Shown: positions 1,839 to 61,208 of the stretch, one piece after another
Layout: the number at the start of each line of letters is the position of its first letter
How positions within the stretch are numbered: position 1 is the first letter of the stretch
DNA from: an uncultured Anaerolineae bacterium
GTDB taxonomy: Bacteria; Chloroflexota; Anaerolineae; Aggregatilineales; UBA3940
Reading direction: 5' to 3'
Assembly: GCA_964603985.1 (NCBI GenBank)
Contig: CAZRXG010000015.1
Coordinates: forward strand, 11,957-75,956
DNA length: 64,000 nucleotides
The notes under the pieces: model-generated
Told to the model about the DNA's origin: nothing
Database searches by the model: none
The model's input: the letters and a program-made list of their open reading frames with translations, nothing else
Program-made: the position numbers and the translations under genes

Positions 1839-4286
1839 GTGAGCGCCCGCAATGCAACGTCCCACCCCCGGCTCCCGGTCACCACGTTGCTGGCCGTCGG
1901 GCTGCTCTCGGCGGCGATGCTGTCCTTTGAGCTGACGCTGACGCGCCTGTTCGCCGTCGCGCAGTTCTACCACTTTGCTTTCATGGTGATCAGCCTGGCG
2001 CTGCTGGGCCTGGGTGCGGCAGGCTCGCTGTTGAGCGTGTGGCCGAGCCTGGGTGAACACCCCGCCCGGTGGGCGGTGGGCCTTGCGCTGGCGACGTTGG
2101 TAAGTTATGCCATCCTCAACCTGATCCCCTTTGACTCGTATGCCATTGCATGGGACCGCCGTCAGGCGCTTTACCTGGTGCTGACCTTCGCCGGGGCGGC
2201 GCTGCCCTTCGTGTTCGGTGGGTTGGTAGTCGGTGGGCTGCTGGCCGCAGACGTGCGTGGCCTGCATCGCGTCTATGCCGCCAATTTGGCCGGGTCGGCG
2301 TTGGGCTGTGTCGTCGTGCTGCCGCTGCTCGGTTGGTTGGGTGGTGAGGGTGCGTTGTTCGCCGGGGCTGCGTTGGGGCTGGTGGGGGCCGCGTTGTTCG
2401 GCATCGGGCGTGCCGATGGGGGGCGGAGGATCGGGGAACTGGTTGGGGTCGGGGCTGGCATCGTCGCCCTGCTCGTCCTGGCGGTCGCACGCCCGGAGTG
2501 GGCGGCCATCCGGCTCTCGCCTTACAAGGGGCTGCATCAGGCGCTGCTCGCCCCCACTGCCGATCACACCGTATCGGAGTGGGGGATCGTGGCGCGCGTG
2601 GACGTGGTTGAGAGTGACTCGATCCACATCATGCCCGGCCTCAGCCAGAATGCGCTGATCGCTTACCCGCCGCGACAGGCCGGGCTGACGCTCGATGGGG
2701 ACAATCTGATGCCGATCACCGCGCTTGCGCCTGAAGATGAATTAGCCCGCGCGCTGGCTGCCAACGTCCCCCAGGCGGTGGTGACCGCGCTGCGCCCTGC
2801 CCCGGCGTCGGTCTTGATTCTGGAGCCGGGTGGTGGATGGGACGTGCTGTTGGCGCTGGCGGGCGGTGCGGAGTCGGTGATGGTCGTCGAGCGCAGTCCG
2901 CTCGTCGTGAGCGTCCTGCGGGACGATTATGCCGATTTCACACGCCGCCTGTACGATGACCCGCGCGTGATGGTCGTCGTGGCCGAGGGGCGCACTTACG
3001 TTCGTCGCACCGAGCGGCGCTTTGACGTGATCGTCCTCTCGTTGAGTGATTCGTTTCACCCGGTCACATCGGGAGCTTACAGCCTGAGTGAGGATTATCG
3101 CTACACCGTCGAGGCGGTCGGTGATGCGCTGGATCACCTTGCGCCGGGGGGGGTGCTGGTCATGATGCGCTGGTTACAAACCCCGCCCACAGAGTCGCTG
3201 CGCGCGCTGGGGACGGTTGAGGCTGCGCTCCGTGCCCGTGACGTGGAGCGCCCTGCCGATCACATTGCTGCGCTGCGTGGCATGCGCACCATGACCTTCG
3301 TCGTAGGTGAGCAGCCGCTCGGCGCTGCCGACCGGGGGGCAATCCGCGCCTTTGCCGCCTCGCGCGGTTATGACCTGGTCTGGTTGCCGGGCATCTCACC
3401 CGATGAGGTCAATCTCCGCAGTCGCCTGCCTGAACCGGCTTATTACCTGGCCTTCGCTGCGCTGCTCGATGACCCGGTGGGCTTCGTGCGCGGCCACGAG
3501 TTTGACATCCGCCCGCCCACAGACGACCGGCCTTTCTTCTTCCACTACTTCCGTTGGCGGCAGACGCCGCGCGTGTTGGCCGAGTTGGGCCACACCTGGC
3601 AGCCCTTCGGTGGGAGCGGTTACTTTGTGCTGGTGGCGCTGCTCGTCCTGGTGACGATCCTGGCCGCGCTGGCGATTTTCGGGCCGCTGGTGGCCGGGAG
3701 AGTCCCCGCGCCGGGGCCTCGCCCTCACCGGCGGGGAGTGCGCGTCCGGGCGCTGGCTTACTTCTTCGCCCTGGGGTTGGCCTTCCTGTTCGTCGAGATC
3801 CCGCTCGCGCAGCGCTTCATCCTGTTCCTGGGCCAGCCGGTGACGGCGCTGTCGGTGGTGCTGTTCGCGATTCTGCTTTTTTCGGGGGTGGGCAGTCTGA
3901 GTGCGCCGCGCTGGTCGATCCGGGTCGCGTTGGGTGCGTTGGTGATTGCCGTGCTGCTGACGCCGCTCGTGCTGCGCGGCGTGTTCGCGCTGGCGCTGGG
4001 GTGGCCGCTCGCGGGGCGCGTTGCCGTCGCGATCCTCAGCCTGGCCCCGATGGGCGTGCTGATGGGCGTGCCCTTCGCGCGAGGGATGGCCCTCGTTGAG
4101 GAGGCCGCGCCCGGCCTGACGCCCTGGGCGTGGGCGATCAATGGCAGTGCGTCGGTCATCAGTGGGGTGTTGGCGGTCATGGCTGCGCTGAGCTGGGGGT
4201 TCTCGGTGGTGCTGTGGGTGGGCGCGGGGACATACGCGTTGGCGCTGGTCGCCATCGGGGGGATGGACACGGCCCCCACCGGATAG
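1839..4286 (+). CDS. membrane-embedded spermidine synthase-like (aminopropyltransferase-fold) protein
   Basis: ORF 1752..4286, trimmed to the in-frame GTG at 1839 just after the upstream stop. Many TM helices at both ends. Central SAM-MTase/spermidine-synthase-like block: VLILEPGGGWDVLLAL...VMVVERSP...DPRVMVVVAEGRTYV...FDVIVLSLSD...LAPGGVLVM. Confidence 0.75.
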   Translation: MSARNATSHPRLPVTTLLAVGLLSAAMLSFELTLTRLFAVAQFYHFAFMVISLALLGLGAAGSLLSVWPSLGEHPARWAVGLALATLVSYAILNLIPFDSYAIAWDRRQALYLVLTFAGAALPFVFGGLVVGGLLAADVRGLHRVYAANLAGSALGCVVVLPLLGWLGGEGALFAGAALGLVGAALFGIGRADGGRRIGELVGVGAGIVALLVLAVARPEWAAIRLSPYKGLHQALLAPTADHTVSEWGIVARVDVVESDSIHIMPGLSQNALIAYPPRQAGLTLDGDNLMPITALAPEDELARALAANVPQAVVTALRPAPASVLILEPGGGWDVLLALAGGAESVMVVERSPLVVSVLRDDYADFTRRLYDDPRVMVVVAEGRTYVRRTERRFDVIVLSLSDSFHPVTSGAYSLSEDYRYTVEAVGDALDHLAPGGVLVMMRWLQTPPTESLRALGTVEAALRARDVERPADHIAALRGMRTMTFVVGEQPLGAADRGAIRAFAASRGYDLVWLPGISPDEVNLRSRLPEPAYYLAFAALLDDPVGFVRGHEFDIRPPTDDRPFFFHYFRWRQTPRVLAELGHTWQPFGGSGYFVLVALLVLVTILAALAIFGPLVAGRVPAPGPRPHRRGVRVRALAYFFALGLAFLFVEIPLAQRFILFLGQPVTALSVVLFAILLFSGVGSLSAPRWSIRVALGALVIAVLLTPLVLRGVFALALGWPLAGRVAVAILSLAPMGVLMGVPFARGMALVEEAAPGLTPWAWAINGSASVISGVLAVMAALSWGFSVVLWVGAGTYALALVAIGGMDTAPTG

Positions 4287-21250: not shown

Positions 21251-21301
21251 ATGGGGGACGGATGAGCCGTCAGGCTCACAGGGGGGTGGCGTGGTATGGC
21301 A

Positions 21302-49572: not shown

Positions 49573-50127
49573 ATGGCGCAAGATAGAGAGAGGGTTTTTG
49601 TCGAGCGGGAGAGCGAGAAGGGTAAGAGGCTGAACTGGCATGCGGCCTGGCTGCGACTTGATCAGATGACGGGTGTCATCGCGCTGCAATCGATGGGGGT
49701 GGCGAAGAAGTGGGCGGTGACGTTTCAGGTTGCTCAGCTTGAGGCGTTTGAGATCCTGCGCGTCAGTGACGTGCGCACGCTGACGGCGATGTACGGTGGC
49801 GGGCTGGCGGGCTGGGCGATGGCCGCGATCATGTCGCGGTGGGCCAAAGTGCCCGTCATTAAGCTGTCCCAGCAGTCCGCCGAGGCAGGCGGGCGGTGGG
49901 CACACATCCGCATGCCGGGGATGCGGCCCAAGAAGACACGCGATCTGGCTAACCGGATCGCGGACCTTCTGCGCCAGCACGGTTACAGCGGCATGATGCC
50001 GAACCTGGCCGACGAGGAACTGTGGAAAGCACCCACCGGCCCGATCCTGATCGGGTGCGGGCTGCTCATCGTCATCGTGGTGTGCCTGGTCGCTGTGATA
50101 ACCGTGATCGGTACCTCCGGTTCGTGA
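49573..50127 (+). CDS. hypothetical protein with C-terminal TM anchor (184 aa)
   Basis: ORF in the track. C-terminal helix ILIGCGLLIVIVVCLVAVITVI. Family not recognised. Confidence 0.55.
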   Translation: MAQDRERVFVERESEKGKRLNWHAAWLRLDQMTGVIALQSMGVAKKWAVTFQVAQLEAFEILRVSDVRTLTAMYGGGLAGWAMAAIMSRWAKVPVIKLSQQSAEAGGRWAHIRMPGMRPKKTRDLANRIADLLRQHGYSGMMPNLADEELWKAPTGPILIGCGLLIVIVVCLVAVITVIGTSGS

Positions 50128-50229
50128 GAGGGGGCCGAATCGCGAAGGGGCGAAGGCCGCAGGAATGCACAAGGGCCTGAGTTCTAAGTCGATCCCAGGC
50201 CCTTGGGTGGTAAAGATCTCCTCTGGCAT

Positions 50230-50682
50230 TCAGGGGTTCCTGTAAGCATCCTCTACAACAGTCTCTTTCCAGCGGTAGCATCTGTCCCATTCGACTTGCA
50301 GGTGATATGTCACATTGCCGCCTGGAGATTCATCTTTGATATAAAGCTCGTAGTCACCAAACGGTGAGGCATTTCCTATACACACCGGCCAGTCATACTC
50401 CCTGCACCCTGCTGCAATATAAAAGGCCACGACATCCGCATATGTATCTGTGGTCTCATACTCATATACGTATGTAGCGTATTCATATCCATCAATATCA
50501 ATATGCTCTTTCGTGAGAACACTACCTGGATAGACAGGGGCCTCAGGAATAATGGTATCGCGCTCGCGGCAGTTGGTAATTGGCTTGCCATCTACTAGTG
50601 CCACAGCAGTACATAGACACACAGTAATGACCACCAGTGCCACCGCAGCGATTCTCGCAAGGTGCTCTTTGAAACTCATCAT
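50230..50682 (-). CDS. hypothetical secreted/anchored protein in a low-GC patch
   Basis: MMSFKEHLARIAAVALVVITVCLCTAV signal/anchor. Tyr/Glu/Asp-rich domain. AT-richer than the flanks. Confidence 0.6.
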   Translation of the reverse strand: MMSFKEHLARIAAVALVVITVCLCTAVALVDGKPITNCRERDTIIPEAPVYPGSVLTKEHIDIDGYEYATYVYEYETTDTYADVVAFYIAAGCREYDWPVCIGNASPFGDYELYIKDESPGGNVTYHLQVEWDRCYRWKETVVEDAYRNP

Positions 50683-50904
50683 ATCTCGCTCAAGTAAGCG
50701 ACATGCCAACATAGCCCGCGCCACAGTCTACATCAGAATCCCCAACCTGAACACCCACCACCCGGCGATGAAGGTCGCGCTGCGGCACCGCGATTGCCCA
50801 TCTGTTCAACCTCCACTAGAATACACCAGAGTCGGGTACGTCGGACGCCCGCAGGCAGCGCGCGGCATTGCTGTGTGACGGGTACGCAGTACGCGAGGAT
50901 CGCC

Positions 50905-51663
50905 ATGCCAGAACTGCAACCCTACAAAGGCTTGTTCGCCGAGTGGCTTGCATCGATGGACACAGCGCAGGCGGAGCAGGTCAGGCAGCCCTCCGGGATC
51001 ACCGACCTGGCGCATTTGGCGCCGGGCGGGTATGCGCGGCGTTTGATCATCGGGGCCGTCGTCGCCTGGTGGCTGCTCGGCGTCGGGCTGTTCGTCGCCG
51101 TCTGGCTCCTCGGCGGTCTCTCGCTCGTGATGCGCAAGGGCGGGATACTGGGGGTGGTGGGCATGTCTTATGTGCCGTGCCTGTGCTTCCTGCTCCTGGT
51201 CGCGGGCACGGTTGCCGTCGCGTTCGGCGGGCCGCGGCTCCAGGCCGCCATCGTCGGTCGACGTCTCGGTTCGCCGGTGATGTGGGCCTCGGCGGAAGAA
51301 CTGCTGCGCGGCGACACGCTCGACCTGACCTTCAGCCAGGACATCAACAGGCCAACCGACATCCAGAGTGTGGTCTTTCAGTTGTTGCTGCGCGAGACGG
51401 TCACTTATACCAGCGGCACCGACCGGGTCACCGTCACCCACGACCACGTCATCGGGCGGGTGGAGCGCCCCGGACGCCCCATGCAGAAGGGCTACCGGCT
51501 GGAGGAGCGCGCCGACTTCCGGATTCCCCCTGACGCGATGCACACCTTCGTCGCCAGCAACAACAAGCTCCAGTGGTTCGTCACCGTGCAGGTCAAGATC
51601 GCCCGCTGGCCGGACTTCCGCAAGGTCTACCAGGTGACCGTCCTGCCGGAGATCACACCGTAA
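50905..51663 (+). CDS. membrane-anchored protein with C-terminal arrestin/Spo0M-like beta-sandwich domain (paralog 1)
   Basis: MPELQPYKG..., 3 TM helices, then LRGDTLDLTF.QDIN.PTDI.SV..QLLLRET.TYTSGTD.VTVTHDHV... FRIPPDAMHTF.... The fold assignment is by eye only. Confidence 0.65.
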   Translation: MPELQPYKGLFAEWLASMDTAQAEQVRQPSGITDLAHLAPGGYARRLIIGAVVAWWLLGVGLFVAVWLLGGLSLVMRKGGILGVVGMSYVPCLCFLLLVAGTVAVAFGGPRLQAAIVGRRLGSPVMWASAEELLRGDTLDLTFSQDINRPTDIQSVVFQLLLRETVTYTSGTDRVTVTHDHVIGRVERPGRPMQKGYRLEERADFRIPPDAMHTFVASNNKLQWFVTVQVKIARWPDFRKVYQVTVLPEITP

Positions 51664-51720
51664 TCAGAACACTGTAGGGGGCGCAGTGTGATGCGCCCCC
51701 CACAAGGAGAAGAAACCGGC

Positions 51721-52482
51721 ATGCCAGAATTACAACCTTATCGCGGTGGGCTGACCGAGGCGGCGGCAAGGGCAGGCGTGTCCCGGTCGCCCGCAGCCAG
51801 GCGGATGGTGGGGGGCGTCGCCAGCATGGCGAAGCCCGCGCTGGGCAAGCAGCAGGGTTGCGTGATAGCTGCCACCGTCTTCGGCTGGTGGGGGCTGGGC
51901 GTCGGCCTGTTCCTGCTGCTGGAGTTCGCGGGGGGCCGGTTTGTCGAGTCGCTGCTGGGCGAAGACATAGGCACGGCCTTCATGTCGGCGCTGCCGTGCG
52001 TGTGCTTCCCGCTGATCTTCGCGGGGACGATCGCGGTCGTGATCGGGCGCTCGTGGCTGATGGGCCTCATCGTCAGCCGCAAGCTGGGGCCGCCCAGCAT
52101 GTGGGCCTCGGCGGAGGAGGTGCTGCGCGGTGACGTGCTCGACCTGACCTTCGGCCAGGACATCAACAGCCCAACCGACATCGAGAGCGTGATCATCCAG
52201 CTTCTGCTGCGCGAGACGGCCACCTACACCAGCGGCACCGACACGGTGACCGTCACCCACGACCACGTCATCGGGCAGGTGGAGCGCCCCGGACGCTCCA
52301 TGCAAAAGGGCTTCCGGCTGGAGGAGCGCGCCGACTTTGAGATCCCGCCTGAAGCGATGCACACCTTCGTCGCCAACAACAACAAGCTCCAGTGGTTCGT
52401 CACCGTGCAGGTCAAGATCGCCCGCTGGCCGGACTTCTACGAGTTCTACCACATTACCGTGCTACCGCAGGAGGCAGCCTGA
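51721..52482 (+). CDS. membrane-anchored protein with C-terminal arrestin/Spo0M-like domain (paralog 2)
   Basis: AAGGAGAAG SD. MPELQPYRG.... The C-terminal half is nearly identical to paralog 1, including about 85 nt with a single mismatch at an offset of 819 bp. Confidence 0.65.
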   Translation: MPELQPYRGGLTEAAARAGVSRSPAARRMVGGVASMAKPALGKQQGCVIAATVFGWWGLGVGLFLLLEFAGGRFVESLLGEDIGTAFMSALPCVCFPLIFAGTIAVVIGRSWLMGLIVSRKLGPPSMWASAEEVLRGDVLDLTFGQDINSPTDIESVIIQLLLRETATYTSGTDTVTVTHDHVIGQVERPGRSMQKGFRLEERADFEIPPEAMHTFVANNNKLQWFVTVQVKIARWPDFYEFYHITVLPQEAA

Positions 52483-52928
52483 TGGCACCCAAACAAGACA
52501 CCCGCGCGGACGTTCGTTTTGTGCTGGAGGGCGAGGTGGAGCGCGACGGCCTGATGGTCTACCCGCCGGGCGCGACCGTCACCGGGCGCTTCGAGGTCAT
52601 GCCCAACCGCGACCTGGAGTGCCGTCACCTGCTGCTCCAGCTTGAGTGGCACACCGAGGGACGCGGCGACCGTGACGGCAAGGTCATCGAGGAGGCCGAC
52701 CTCTTCCAGGGCGTGCTGACGGCGGGCGTCTCAATCGGGGAGGACTTCGTCTTCACGCTGCCCGACCAGCCCTGGAGCTACGCCGGGCACTACGTCAACA
52801 TCGTGTGGGCCGTCTCGATCAAGATCGACATCCCGCGCGCTAAGGACGTTAACGCCAGCCAGCCGTTCATCATGACGCCCGACCGGGACCGTGTGACGCC
52901 AGAATCCGCGCCAGACTCGATCTGGTGA
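52482..52928 (+). CDS. soluble arrestin/Spo0M-like domain protein
   Basis: Its ATG shares one base with the upstream TGA (TGATG), and GCAGGAGG is the SD. Pattern VRFVLEGEVERDGLMVYPPGATVTGRFEV...LLLQLEWHTEGRGD...FTLPDQPWSYAGHYVNIVWAVSIKIDIP. Confidence 0.65.
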   Translation: MAPKQDTRADVRFVLEGEVERDGLMVYPPGATVTGRFEVMPNRDLECRHLLLQLEWHTEGRGDRDGKVIEEADLFQGVLTAGVSIGEDFVFTLPDQPWSYAGHYVNIVWAVSIKIDIPRAKDVNASQPFIMTPDRDRVTPESAPDSIW

Positions 52929-53565
52929 TCGCGCCCGGCGCGTCCAGGCGCTGGAAAACCTCGTACAGCAGCAGCTCCGACGCGCGCAGGTCGCCGCCGT
53001 AGGTCTCCCACAGCAGTGCGACTGCCTCTGGCGTGAGGCTCACGCGCGGCGGGTCGTCGAGTGCGAAGGCTACCAGCCGACGCGCCAGCGCCGCCGCCAG
53101 ATGCTCGCGCGTGACCGCCGCCGCCAGGTGGACGGTCGTCAGCGGCAGGCCGCGCCGCGCAAAAGCCGCCCCCAGATCGTCGTGGCTGGCGACGACCAGC
53201 CGCAGTCCGCGCATTGCCGCTCGCAGCAGCCGCGCCCGGTGCCGCCCGCCGAGCCGCTGCGCCTCGTCGAGCAGGAAGCGGTCGAGGCCGCCCAGGCTGG
53301 TGTGGAAGCGGCGCTCGCCTTCGGGCAGGCGCTCGTAGGCCACGCGCTCGCCCGCCTCGCCGAAGTGCTCGGCCAGCCACAGCAGCACGGTCGTCTTGCC
53401 GAACCCCTTCTCGCCGATCAGTTGCAGGTGCGCGGGGTCGGCCTCAAGCGCCGCCGCCACCGCCGGGGGCAGCACCGCGATGGCCGCCCACTCGTCACGC
53501 GTCAGCGCGCCGAACGGGTTGCGCTCGAAGCCAAGCCTGCGGAACGGGAAGTAGCGGTCGGGCAT
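52870..53565 (-). CDS. ExeA-like AAA/P-loop ATPase (231 aa)
   Basis: Start at MPDRYFPFRRLGFERNPF (an ExeA-type N-terminus). Walker A GEKGFGKTT, Walker B FLLDEAQ. The 3' end overlaps the convergent gene by 59 nt. Confidence 0.65.
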   Translation of the reverse strand: MPDRYFPFRRLGFERNPFGALTRDEWAAIAVLPPAVAAALEADPAHLQLIGEKGFGKTTVLLWLAEHFGEAGERVAYERLPEGERRFHTSLGGLDRFLLDEAQRLGGRHRARLLRAAMRGLRLVVASHDDLGAAFARRGLPLTTVHLAAAVTREHLAAALARRLVAFALDDPPRVSLTPEAVALLWETYGGDLRASELLLYEVFQRLDAPGAITRSSLARILASHGPGRAS

Positions 53566-53688
53566 GGTGACTATGGTAGCACGGGCCGGGCCGGGGGGCG
53601 AGGTGGGCCTTTGCGCTCCAACACGGTTGACACGTCGCCCGGCGCGGAGTTTAATAGTAGCCTGCCCTGATCGTACAGGAGCGTAGCC

Positions 53689-54681
53689 ATGACTGACCAA
53701 CCGAAGCGCGACCGGCGAGATGAATCGGCCAGCACACACGCCAACGGCGATTTTGTTGCGGGCGACAAGAGCCAACTGGCCGACATCGCCCGTATGCGCG
53801 GTGACTGGGACGAAGCCGGGACGCTCTACCGCGCGGCGCTGGAGGAGTTCGAGGCGCTGGGCGACCGGTGGGGCGTGGCGGTCAGCAAGGGCAAGCTGGC
53901 CGACATCGCCGCCAATCGCGGCAACTGGGCCGAGGCCGAGGCGCTGTTCGAAGAGGCCATCGCCGTCATGAAACAGTTAGGTGACCGGCAACAGGTGGCC
54001 GCGATGCAAGGGGTGTTGGCCGACGTCGCCCGCATGCGTGGCAACTGGGACGAGGCCGAGAAGTTGTTGAATGAAGCTATGGCAGTTTCCATCGAGATTG
54101 GCGACCGGCGTGATGCGGCCGTCAAAAAGGGCAAGCTGGCCGACATCGCCGCCCATCGCGGTGACTGGGACGCAGCCGAGATGCTACGCAAAGAGGTGCT
54201 GGCCGAATACGAGGCGCTGGGCGACCGGCAGGGTGTGGTGGTCAGCAAGGGCAAGCTGGCCAACATCGCCGCCAGGCACGGCGACTGGGCCGAGGCCGAG
54301 ATGCTCTACGGCGCGGCGCTGGCGGGGTTCGAGGCGCTGGGCGACCGGCAGCAGATTGCAGTTGTCAAGGGTAAGCTGGCCGACATCGTCGCCCATCGCG
54401 GCGATTGGGACGCAGCCGAGACACTCAACCGCGAGGCACTGGGTGAGTGCCGGGCGCTGGGTGCGTTGGTCGAGGAGGCGGTCAGGTCGTATAACTTTGC
54501 GGGTATGCTGTGCAGGCTGGGGCGGTTGGCCGAGGCCGTCGAGCTGATGGAACGTGTGGTGGAGATCGACGAGCAGGTCAACCACCCCGATCTGGAGAGG
54601 AACCGGGCGCGCCTGGAGCAGTTCCGTGCCGAGTTGAAGAAACGCGGCGGCGGGCAGGGAGATCAGGCCGCCAGGGGATGA
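53689..54681 (+). CDS. TPR-like helical repeat protein with 6-7 tandem 40-residue repeats
   Basis: Repeats of the form KGKLADIAAHRGDWDEAE.L...AL..FEALGDRQGVAV. The 120-bp period is visible at the DNA level. Confidence 0.75.
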   Translation: MTDQPKRDRRDESASTHANGDFVAGDKSQLADIARMRGDWDEAGTLYRAALEEFEALGDRWGVAVSKGKLADIAANRGNWAEAEALFEEAIAVMKQLGDRQQVAAMQGVLADVARMRGNWDEAEKLLNEAMAVSIEIGDRRDAAVKKGKLADIAAHRGDWDAAEMLRKEVLAEYEALGDRQGVVVSKGKLANIAARHGDWAEAEMLYGAALAGFEALGDRQQIAVVKGKLADIVAHRGDWDAAETLNREALGECRALGALVEEAVRSYNFAGMLCRLGRLAEAVELMERVVEIDEQVNHPDLERNRARLEQFRAELKKRGGGQGDQAARG

Positions 54682-59645: not shown

Positions 59646-61208
59646 TCACCGCCTGCGCAATAGCAGCGCCATGATAGCCAGCACCAGCGCGATGCTGCCC
59701 AGCGTGATCCCCAGGTAAGGCGCCGTCTGCGTGACGGTGATCCCGGTCAGTGCGAGGATCAAATCGGCCAGCGCCGCGCCGGTCAGGATCCCCGCCAGCC
59801 AGTTGAGGAACTCGGTGGCGCGCGCCTCGCGGTAATCGTGGAACTCGCTGGCGTAGCTGAGCAAAAGCTCCTGCTTGCACTCGAAGCGCTCGGCCAGTTG
59901 GTCGAGCTTGTGATAGCTTCCTGCCCGCTCCAGGAACTCGACGCGGGTGGCGAAGGGCGTGATGCCCTCGCGGTACTGCACCAGGTCGGCCAGCGCGCCC
60001 TGGAGCGCGGCGATCATCGCGCGGCGGTGCGGCGTGGGGGCGGCGGCCAGCGCGTCGAGGCGCTGGATGTAGGAGCGCAGGATGGCGTCCTGCAGGTAGA
60101 CCCACTCCAGCAGGACGGTGTAGTGAGCGTAGAGGTAGGTGACGGCGTGTTCGGCGTCCAGACGCAGGCGCTTCTCCAGGCCGGGCAGGATGCCGGACAG
60201 CAGGTCGTTGTAGAGGATCAGCTCGCTGTTGCCCAGCAGGTAGACCGCCGCCTCGCTGTCCACGCTCAGATTGTCGGCTAGCTCGCGCTCGACCAGCCAC
60301 CCGGCGCGCTCGTGGTAGAAGGTGTCCATCGCGCCGATGCCGCGCAGTGGGGCGGCGTGCCCGGCGATGAAGGCCGGGAAGTCGGCGGCGGCAGGTGGGT
60401 CGGTTTCGAGCAGCACGACGGTCGTCGAGCCGGTGGGGCGCGGGGCCTCGCCGAGGACGGCCTGCTGCCGCTCCTGGTGCTTGCGCTGACGGCGTCTGCG
60501 CGGCGGCGCGGTGGACTCGTAGCGCGCGCTCAGGCGGGCGGCCATGACCTGTGCAACGTCGCGCAGGCTGGCGACGGCCAGGTGCCAGCCGGGGGTGTCC
60601 TCGACGATCAGGGAGATGTGGGCCGTCGAGGGGTCGGCGGGCAGCACGGCCCGCCAGTCGGCTGACAGGTTGAGCAGTTGCTGGCTGATGCCCAGCCGCA
60701 CCAGCTCGATAGCCTGCTCCGGCGTGTAGCCGGGAGCAGCCTCACCGGTGGGGGCGTCAAATGAGGCGTGGTACTCCATGATGCCCACCCCGGCCCGGTG
60801 GAGCAGCAGGAAAGGCGTGATCGCGATCCACGCGCTCGCTTCGTCGGCCTCCAGTGCGGCCTCCACAACCTGGCCGGGCATGAGTGCGTCGGGTGGACGG
60901 CGATGCCTGTCGCAGGCCGTGCGCAGGCTTGCCATCTCAAAGGATGCGAACTGGAATCGCAGCAGGTCGTCGTAGCCGATGCTGGCCACGTTGCGCGAGA
61001 CGCGCTCCAGCACGCGCAGTCCGGGGGGCTGGACGTTGCGGGGCGAGAGGCGGTCGGCGTGATAGCAGGGCAGGGGGGTCAGGCGCTCGCGGCTGCCTTC
61101 GAGGAAGTCGGGCAGTGGGTCGGCGACGACGAAGGTATTGCGCCAGATGACGTGCATTTGCCGGACGCGCAGGGTGGGCGCGGGCGTGGATTCGGGTTGA
61201 ACGGTCAT
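59646..61208 (-). CDS. hypothetical 520-aa protein with two C-terminal TM helices (CorA-like topology, no GMN motif)
   Basis: Long ORF with normal composition. C-terminus FLNWLAGILTGAALADLILAL ... LGITLGSIALVLAIMALLL. Confidence 0.65.
   Translation of the reverse strand: MTVQPESTPAPTLRVRQMHVIWRNTFVVADPLPDFLEGSRERLTPLPCYHADRLSPRNVQPPGLRVLERVSRNVASIGYDDLLRFQFASFEMASLRTACDRHRRPPDALMPGQVVEAALEADEASAWIAITPFLLLHRAGVGIMEYHASFDAPTGEAAPGYTPEQAIELVRLGISQQLLNLSADWRAVLPADPSTAHISLIVEDTPGWHLAVASLRDVAQVMAARLSARYESTAPPRRRRQRKHQERQQAVLGEAPRPTGSTTVVLLETDPPAAADFPAFIAGHAAPLRGIGAMDTFYHERAGWLVERELADNLSVDSEAAVYLLGNSELILYNDLLSGILPGLEKRLRLDAEHAVTYLYAHYTVLLEWVYLQDAILRSYIQRLDALAAAPTPHRRAMIAALQGALADLVQYREGITPFATRVEFLERAGSYHKLDQLAERFECKQELLLSYASEFHDYREARATEFLNWLAGILTGAALADLILALTGITVTQTAPYLGITLGSIALVLAIMALLLRRR

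Follow-up and report, generated by a model that had tools for sequence, protein, structure and literature searches.

The window analysed here is a 64,000-nucleotide (nt) stretch of DNA from an uncultured Anaerolineae bacterium of the phylum Chloroflexota (assembly GCA_964603985.1, contig CAZRXG010000015.1, positions 11,957 to 75,956), and it contains a cluster of three arrestin-fold genes, A, B and C, followed by a convergent ATPase gene. In a survey of 80 loci, the conserved unit was found to be one membrane gene, one soluble gene and a convergent ATPase gene, and not the array of three arrestin genes that the initial annotation of this DNA had proposed as the unit. Only the presence of a second membrane copy sets this genome apart, and gene B represents the conserved membrane subunit. 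The suggestion that an uncharacterised system involving the ATPase might be present was upheld, and no matching description or model was found. With moderate confidence, we regard the unit as an undescribed three-component bacterial module, here in its Chloroflexota form, which would act as a split two-lobe clamp at the membrane with the ATPase as its switch. The genes are as follows, with positions being those of the window and lengths in amino acids (aa).

50905..51663, + strand: gene A, 252 aa, membrane-anchored arrestin-fold protein, predicted hairpin at approximately residues 48-66 and 81-99, predicted cytoplasmic beta-sandwich from approximately residue 120
51721..52482, + strand: gene B, 253 aa, membrane-anchored arrestin-fold protein, predicted hairpin helices at approximately residues 48-66 and 90-108
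52482..52928, + strand: gene C, 148 aa, soluble, single-lobe arrestin-fold protein carrying WHTEGRGDRD and LPxxPWSYAGHYVNIVW
52870..53562, - strand: predicted minimal AAA+ ATPase gene, approximately 230 aa, convergent on gene C

Organization and conservation of the unit

The three arrestin genes were all found as first described, as intact open reading frames (ORFs) on the same strand. The stop codon of B and the start codon of C share base 52482 (TGATG), and AGGAGG lies 6 nt upstream of the C start; the one-base overlap is therefore real, and the predicted translational coupling of the soluble gene was upheld. The 3' end of the ATPase gene overlaps gene C by 59 nt, and its start is most likely at 53562, which gives a protein of 230 aa with an N-terminus conserved across 30 aligned homologs. 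The arrestin locus is present only once in the source genome.

The 80 loci were obtained by a pattern scan for the soluble-gene family in one genome per species; ORFs were called from stop to stop, so that starts are approximate, and prevalence figures come from samples. Members of the soluble family are approximately 130 aa long, and the two motifs listed above for C are its near-invariant hallmarks. The membrane gene adjoined the soluble gene in 78 of the 80 loci and was directly upstream of it in 77, with a median gap of approximately 1 nt and frequent overlaps of 1 nt and 4 nt. An ATPase gene of a single family was convergent in 55 of the 74 loci with sufficient downstream DNA, usually with a 3' overlap of 20-29 nt. 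It was on the opposite strand in 56 of the 58 loci carrying it, so that the three genes do not form an overlapping, co-directional set. Four of the five genomes without an adjacent ATPase gene held a homolog elsewhere (E 1e-77 to 1e-84). These findings show that the membrane arrestin, its soluble paralog and the minimal AAA+ protein are kept together (78/80, 55/74 and 4/5, respectively). The TPR gene next to the ATPase gene had also been taken for a partner; an NB-ARC gene stands there instead in a closely related metagenome contig (L002), and the TPR gene did not recur in the survey.

When relatives of A and B were sought, a word-indexed search gave six full-length proteins, and an exhaustive profile search of the membrane family gave 2354 clusters at 50% identity, mostly of 195-240 aa. 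The form that begins with MPELQPY and has a 45-residue N-terminal tail is a small branch of this family.

A single membrane gene was present in 75 of the 80 loci. Arrays with two membrane copies occurred in L001, L054, L055 and G007, and an array with four copies in L056. One soluble gene stood alongside several membrane genes in the window, L054, L055, L056 and G007. The paralogs of the arrays elsewhere resemble ordinary old duplicates. A further array, in genome G013 (L095/L099, contig C277), holds two soluble genes together with four or more membrane genes, of which one is degenerate, in the order TM..TM-SOL-TM-SOL, with one convergent ATPase gene at its end; here the whole membrane-soluble pair, and not the membrane gene alone, was duplicated.

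Arrestin fold, membrane topology and the ATPase

B was modelled with AlphaFold2 using seven homologs and C using 52 homologs, both as single proteins. The mean predicted local distance difference test score (pLDDT) was 69 for B, with 76-89 in the beta domain, and 88.5 for C. In Foldseek searches, the best matches of the B beta domain and of C were the ARRDC3 N-lobe (E 4.8e-9 and 2e-9, respectively) and Spo0M (2.5e-8 and 4e-8, respectively); the B domain also matched TXNIP-N and beta-arrestins, and C matched Vps26 with a TM-score of up to 0.70. Both have an arrestin-type beta-sandwich as in the Arrestin clan (Pfam CL0135), with a Foldseek probability of 1.00. The arrestin/Spo0M-like fold proposed at the outset was thus confirmed on predicted structures and by Pfam matches of family members.

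Pfam scores of the window proteins were under the gathering score for C (19.4 vs 24.9 bits) and A (13.3 vs 27.7), and B gave no match to Arrestin_N or Arrestin_C. Among the soluble homologs, 44 of 52 matched Arrestin_N (E <= 0.01; best 4.3e-9). Arrestin_C was matched by 18 of 60 membrane homologs (best 1.9e-7) and Arrestin_N by just one of them. No Pfam match of the DUF3592 type was seen. The Spo0M model PF07070 had no match to A, B or C at E <= 1 and was matched weakly (E <= 0.01) by six of the 52 soluble homologs; the Vps26 Pfam model was touched by three. When the alignments of the membrane family (60 sequences) and the soluble family (52 sequences) were compared by hhalign, the probability was 90.7% (E 1.3e-6, 123 columns), which bears out the earlier statement that C is akin to the beta domain of A and B. 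An earlier profile comparison of A/B with C using only seven sequences had given no signal (probability 0.4%).

By hydropathy, A and B each have two membrane helices forming a hairpin, and not about three as first counted; the flanks at the N-terminus and after the helices are basic, and the short loop is acidic or neutral. Because the flanks of the hairpin follow the positive-inside pattern, the predicted topology is an N-in/C-in hairpin with a cytoplasmic beta domain, on the same side of the membrane as C and the ATPase. The models of B and C contain one beta-sandwich each, and the N-lobe and C-lobe in one polypeptide that characterise arrestins and Vps26 were not found in either. Within the soluble lobe, conservation is highest at a charged hairpin tip, EGRGDRD, between two long strands, which may correspond to the finger-loop region of arrestins. 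In six longer membrane relatives (P0242, P0260, P0257, P0244, P0190 and P0247; 381-445 aa), the usual hairpin and beta domain are preceded by two additional membrane helices and an unassigned stretch of approximately 130 aa.

A soluble arrestin fused at its C-terminus to the C-terminal domain of ribosomal protein L7/L12 (Pfam E 9e-19) was observed in an Armatimonadota locus (L017:6001-6624) and in three other members of the alignment. On the ribosome, this domain recruits translational GTPases; by analogy, it might contact a P-loop partner when carried by the soluble arrestin.

The ATPase has an N-terminal FPFxxLGFxxNPF motif, a Walker A motif GxGKT and a Walker B motif LDEAQR. In 30 homologs, residues G50, G53, G55, K56, D99, E100, R103, H127 and R162 are invariant, as is the N-terminal G..NPF peptide. 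Walker A of the form GxxGxGK[ST], Walker B of the form hhhhDE and a C-terminal helical lid with a conserved Arg, as expected of AAA+ proteins, were all found. The family profile aligned core and lid to RFC, DnaA and a chain named 'ATPase, AAA family' (8g28), and the core to RuvB. Its Pfam matches, to AAA_22, AAA_30, nSTAND5 and AAA_16, were all under the cut-off, and a search of PDB sequences with the single ATPase sequence gave noise. The protein is a minimal AAA+ ATPase of the clamp-loader/DnaA/ORC-like group and not of the unfoldase type.

Three known systems resemble the module in part. Spo0M is the sole prokaryotic family listed in the arrestin clan (Alvarez 2008, PMC2515105). With PDB entry 5CL2 it was among the top five Foldseek matches of both B and C, and it is likewise a bacterial protein with a single arrestin-like beta-sandwich; unlike the window module, it is not known to have a membrane hairpin, a paired paralog or an ATPase of its own. 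It is soluble, approximately 250 aa long, and carries an additional C-terminal domain. The eukaryotic alpha-arrestins (ARRDC3, TXNIP/VDUP-1, ARRD-6) and the visual and beta-arrestins share the strand motif LPxxxPxS[FY]xG...hxW with the bacterial families, whose members match Arrestin_N and Arrestin_C, and they include the best structural matches (ARRDC3 N-lobe, E 2e-9 to 5e-9). In contrast, both of their lobes lie on one soluble chain, whereas the window has single lobes on two chains, one of them membrane-anchored. A, B and C have no PPxY motif (read from the sequences), and the partner is an AAA+ ATPase instead of a GPCR (G-protein-coupled receptor) or a Nedd4 ligase. Vps26 of retromer has the two-lobed arrestin fold, and C aligns to its lobes with a TM-score of 0.64-0.70; Vps26 differs in being a single-chain soluble subunit of a eukaryotic coat.

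The likeness to Spo0M raises the alternative of membrane-protein quality control, in which arrestin-fold adaptors or regulators would, by analogy, recruit clients to a protease such as FtsH and the AAA+ protein would be a chaperone-like helper. A link between Spo0M and FtsH has been reported. The rank of Spo0M among the best structural matches and the predicted position of the beta domains at the cytoplasmic membrane face are consistent with such a role. The Spo0M model, however, touched only the few soluble homologs mentioned above and not the window protein, no protease gene is conserved nearby, and the predicted class of the ATPase is not that of an unfoldase. We consider quality control quite improbable.

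Mosaic divergence of A and B and strain variation

Proteins A and B share 61% identity across 250 aa and, as first noted, both begin with MPELQPY. The direct repeat has the offset of 819 bp given initially, and the near-perfect stretch quoted then was found to contain perfect runs of 22 nt and 61 nt (51535-51556 and 51558-51618) with one g/a mismatch between them; the second is the longest perfect run shared by the two genes. The C-terminal domain of approximately 130 aa had been called nearly identical; it is similar, at 80% identity in protein and 86% in DNA, and is not nearly identical throughout. The strong divergence of the N-terminal and membrane part was confirmed (39% identity). Nucleotide identity was 81-86% in the 3' half and about 55% in the 5' half. 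Three further features bear on this pattern and on the presence of gene A.

51260..51620, + strand: gene-conversion tract in A (approximate), with its counterpart at 52079-52439 in B; synonymous divergence is down to approximately 0.2 here, and the 61-nt perfect run is included
50161..51699, no strand: strain-variable segment, present in the window and replaced by 73 unrelated bases in the relative L002
51672..51705, no strand: GC-rich hairpin (14-bp stem) in the spacer between A and B, just 5' of the ribosome-binding site of B

When 25 between-locus pairs of similar C-domain identity were examined, the minimum identity of the N part was 55% and none was at or below 39%, so that the A-B pair is an outlier. 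The N part of A was 39% identical to that of B, compared to 31-37% to homologs of other organisms; the C parts were 80% identical to each other, compared to 60-65% to homologs in other organisms. Synonymous divergence (dS) was approximately 0.75 in the N half compared to 0.28 in the C half, and it was 0 across codons 211-240. Among codons for the same amino acid, synonymous differences were more frequent in the N half (43%) than in the C half (18%; Fisher p = 0.003). The mosaic fits an old duplication whose 3' halves were homogenised by gene conversion, probably more than once, and the initial suggestion of conversion in the C-terminal half is supported by the synonymous difference and by the outlying position among the 25 pairs.

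Because the N-half and C-half trees of the MPELQPY subfamily were unresolved, the timing of the duplication was read from identity matrices, synonymous sites and the ortholog background. B and its ortholog B' in L002 have 96-97% nucleotide identity, and the proteins are 92% identical. The divergence of A from B is far above that of B from B', and therefore the duplication does not postdate the separation of the two strains; the distance of A to B equals that to B', which places the conversion before this separation as well. The description of the pair as recently duplicated did not hold: the segment with A is missing from the 96%-identical L002, dS of the N half is high, and the N part of A is no closer to B than to homologs in other organisms. 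Diversifying selection on the membrane part, also suggested initially, was not found in a dN/dS analysis, in which omega was below 1 in both halves and approximately 0.8 for the membrane part, at near-saturated divergence.

L002 is collinear with window positions 49614-50160 (94% identity) and 51700-53616 (96%). The intervening 1.54 kb, including gene A, is the strain-variable segment listed above, and collinearity resumes inside the 3' arm of the 51672..51705 hairpin. Given conversion before the strains separated, it is simpler to assume that the L002 lineage lost A, with import by recombination as the alternative. A partial gene upstream of B in L002 was rejected as an ortholog of A; it is a homolog of the window gene at 49573-50127. 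The end of A resembles the L002 spacer over ATCACAxCGTAA, a match too short to be called a deletion scar. The strain-specific segment with gene A also holds a 164-aa ORF (50230-50724, - strand) with 48.5% GC, compared to 64.8% for the window; it matched no Pfam or PHROGs family and looks foreign.

Gene A could be a redundant leftover in the course of being lost, with an A/B mosaic that has no functional meaning and only B, C and the ATPase functional. Its absence from L002, its position adjoining the low-GC foreign-looking ORF and the single membrane gene of most loci agree with this. Against it, the frame of A is open over its full length, and all invariant and nearly invariant residues of the family are retained; an AGGA ribosome-binding site lies 5 nt before its ATG (read from the sequence), with a promoter-like site further upstream; its omega relative to B is below 1 in both halves; and multi-copy arrays arose independently elsewhere. 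A leftover A is in our judgement unlikely.

The flank beyond the ATPase gene is a variable spot. A 330-aa TPR-only gene (53689-54681) follows in the window and the NB-ARC gene (2705-4060) in L002; homology between the two past the ATPase (83% nucleotide identity) ends near 53767, approximately 80 nt into the TPR gene. A 36-nt stretch of the spacer upstream of the ATPase gene in L002 (2544-2579) matches window 21253-21288 at 97% on the opposite strand, and may be a short dispersed repeat. In L001, the ORF directly upstream of the tandem membrane pair (L001:1-1299) is a homolog of a 520-aa window protein (59646-61208, - strand), with a 230-aa stretch 83% identical. The window protein has no Pfam match, and its gene lies 7 kb from A/B on the other strand; an older neighbourhood may have been split by island insertions.

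Distribution, gene neighbours and proposed mechanism

The 80 loci are mostly from Chloroflexota (chiefly Anaerolineae), with eight from Armatimonadota and five from Planctomycetota. Records labelled as cultured strains contributed none of them, and all but one are labelled as metagenome-assembled genomes. The membrane family was found in five of 40 relatives, all of one family-level group, and the soluble gene in only two of 400 other genomes drawn evenly across the phylum. The soluble-protein tree mostly tracks taxonomy, with Planctomycetota forming one nested clade and Armatimonadota mixed with some Chloroflexota; this suggests that descent was mainly vertical, that the gene was often lost and that it was transferred a few times.

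In 24 loci, e.g., L040:4287-5342 and L069:4234-5331 (E 1e-57 to 5e-65), a gene for an HDAC-type deacetylase (Hist_deacetyl) immediately preceded the membrane arrestin gene on the same strand, often overlapping it by 4 nt; this was seen across several deep clades of the soluble-protein tree. A Ser/Thr kinase (Pkinase) of approximately 800 aa was encoded divergently from the ATPase gene in L016, L018, L022, L031, L033, L040, L046, L057, L075 and L085, and kinases of any placement occurred in just 12 of the 80 loci. All four unlinked ATPase loci (L100-L103) also had a divergent Ser/Thr kinase gene of approximately 800 aa. In 11 Anaerolineales loci, a GAF histidine kinase and a response regulator were encoded upstream. 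A, B, C and the homologs P0129 and P0130 had no match beyond noise in PADLOC-DB 2.0, where the ATPase gave marginal P-loop matches only; no component was matched in PHROGs beyond marginal P-loop hits, and NCBIfam gave nothing useful. Literature searches gave no description of a module of membrane arrestin, soluble arrestin and ATPase.

These data bear on whether the module is an anti-phage or abortive-infection system, in which the ATPase would sense infection, the two-helix proteins would disrupt the membrane and the tandem diversified paralogs would be the outcome of an arms race. Toxin-antitoxin, HEPN and caspase-like genes abound in the window region, the distribution is patchy, close strains differ in whether they have gene A, the membrane genes were repeatedly amplified in tandem, and the flank past the ATPase is variable, all as might be expected of defence. 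However, the arrestin-fold genes lack defence and phage database matches, and the deacetylase, kinase, two-component and ABC neighbours elsewhere stand in stable lineage-wide synteny and not in defence islands. The soluble-protein tree also largely follows taxonomy, and no nuclease, protease or NADase effector is present. We therefore give a defence function little credence.

The reading we favour remains the split two-lobe clamp; the fold, the topology and the three-way genetic linkage are shown, and the mechanism is inferred throughout. At the cytoplasmic face, the membrane lobe and the soluble lobe would come together as a two-lobed clamp resembling arrestin or Vps26, which would bind a client close to the membrane. 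The ATPase would be a nucleotide-driven switch of the clamp or its assembly and release factor, with its invariant N-terminal NPF peptide as a candidate docking element. The kinase, HDAC-type deacetylase and two-component neighbours point to a possible signalling or adaptor role and not to metabolism. In this genome, A and B would share one soluble subunit and one ATPase; their partner-facing beta domains would have been kept alike by conversion, and their divergent N-terminal and membrane parts would give two membrane inputs or addresses.

The central step of the clamp, the heteromer of membrane and soluble lobes, is inferred: tight translational coupling and the presence of one soluble gene for several membrane paralogs with a beta domain kept alike suggest it, and the Arrestin_C-like and Arrestin_N-like preferences of the two families, weak and consistent, suggest that it would be the equivalent of a two-lobed arrestin at the inner membrane face. 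Several observations weigh against the clamp. Structurally, both B and C most resemble N-lobes, and the N-like/C-like split consists of those weak Pfam preferences. No fusion of the two lobes (Rosetta stone) was detectable by the family profiles among relatives of 255-445 aa. The tandem membrane pair of L001 stands without a soluble gene on a 5.4-kb contig. Finally, the signalling-type neighbours are limited to particular lineages and could be inherited synteny.

A more specific version is put forward tentatively, as a possibility we rate below even chances. In such a 'split arrestin', the tethered C-like lobe and the free N-like lobe would form the clamp, and the dedicated AAA+ protein would drive engagement, coupled in some lineages to a Ser/Thr kinase or a deacetylase. 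The module would then be a prokaryotic membrane adaptor that reads modifications, and may represent the unfused precursor state of two-lobed arrestins and Vps26.

The function of Spo0M itself is still obscure, and the module described here is a second, distinct bacterial use of the arrestin fold, conserved in three phyla, in which a lobe fixed to the membrane is accompanied by a free one and by a dedicated ATPase. The recurrent multi-copy membrane subunits, here with a converted beta domain and divergent membrane parts, suggest a built-in diversification of inputs. If the lobes pair, the module would offer a testable model for the origin of two-lobed arrestins and for the role of the fold before GPCRs.

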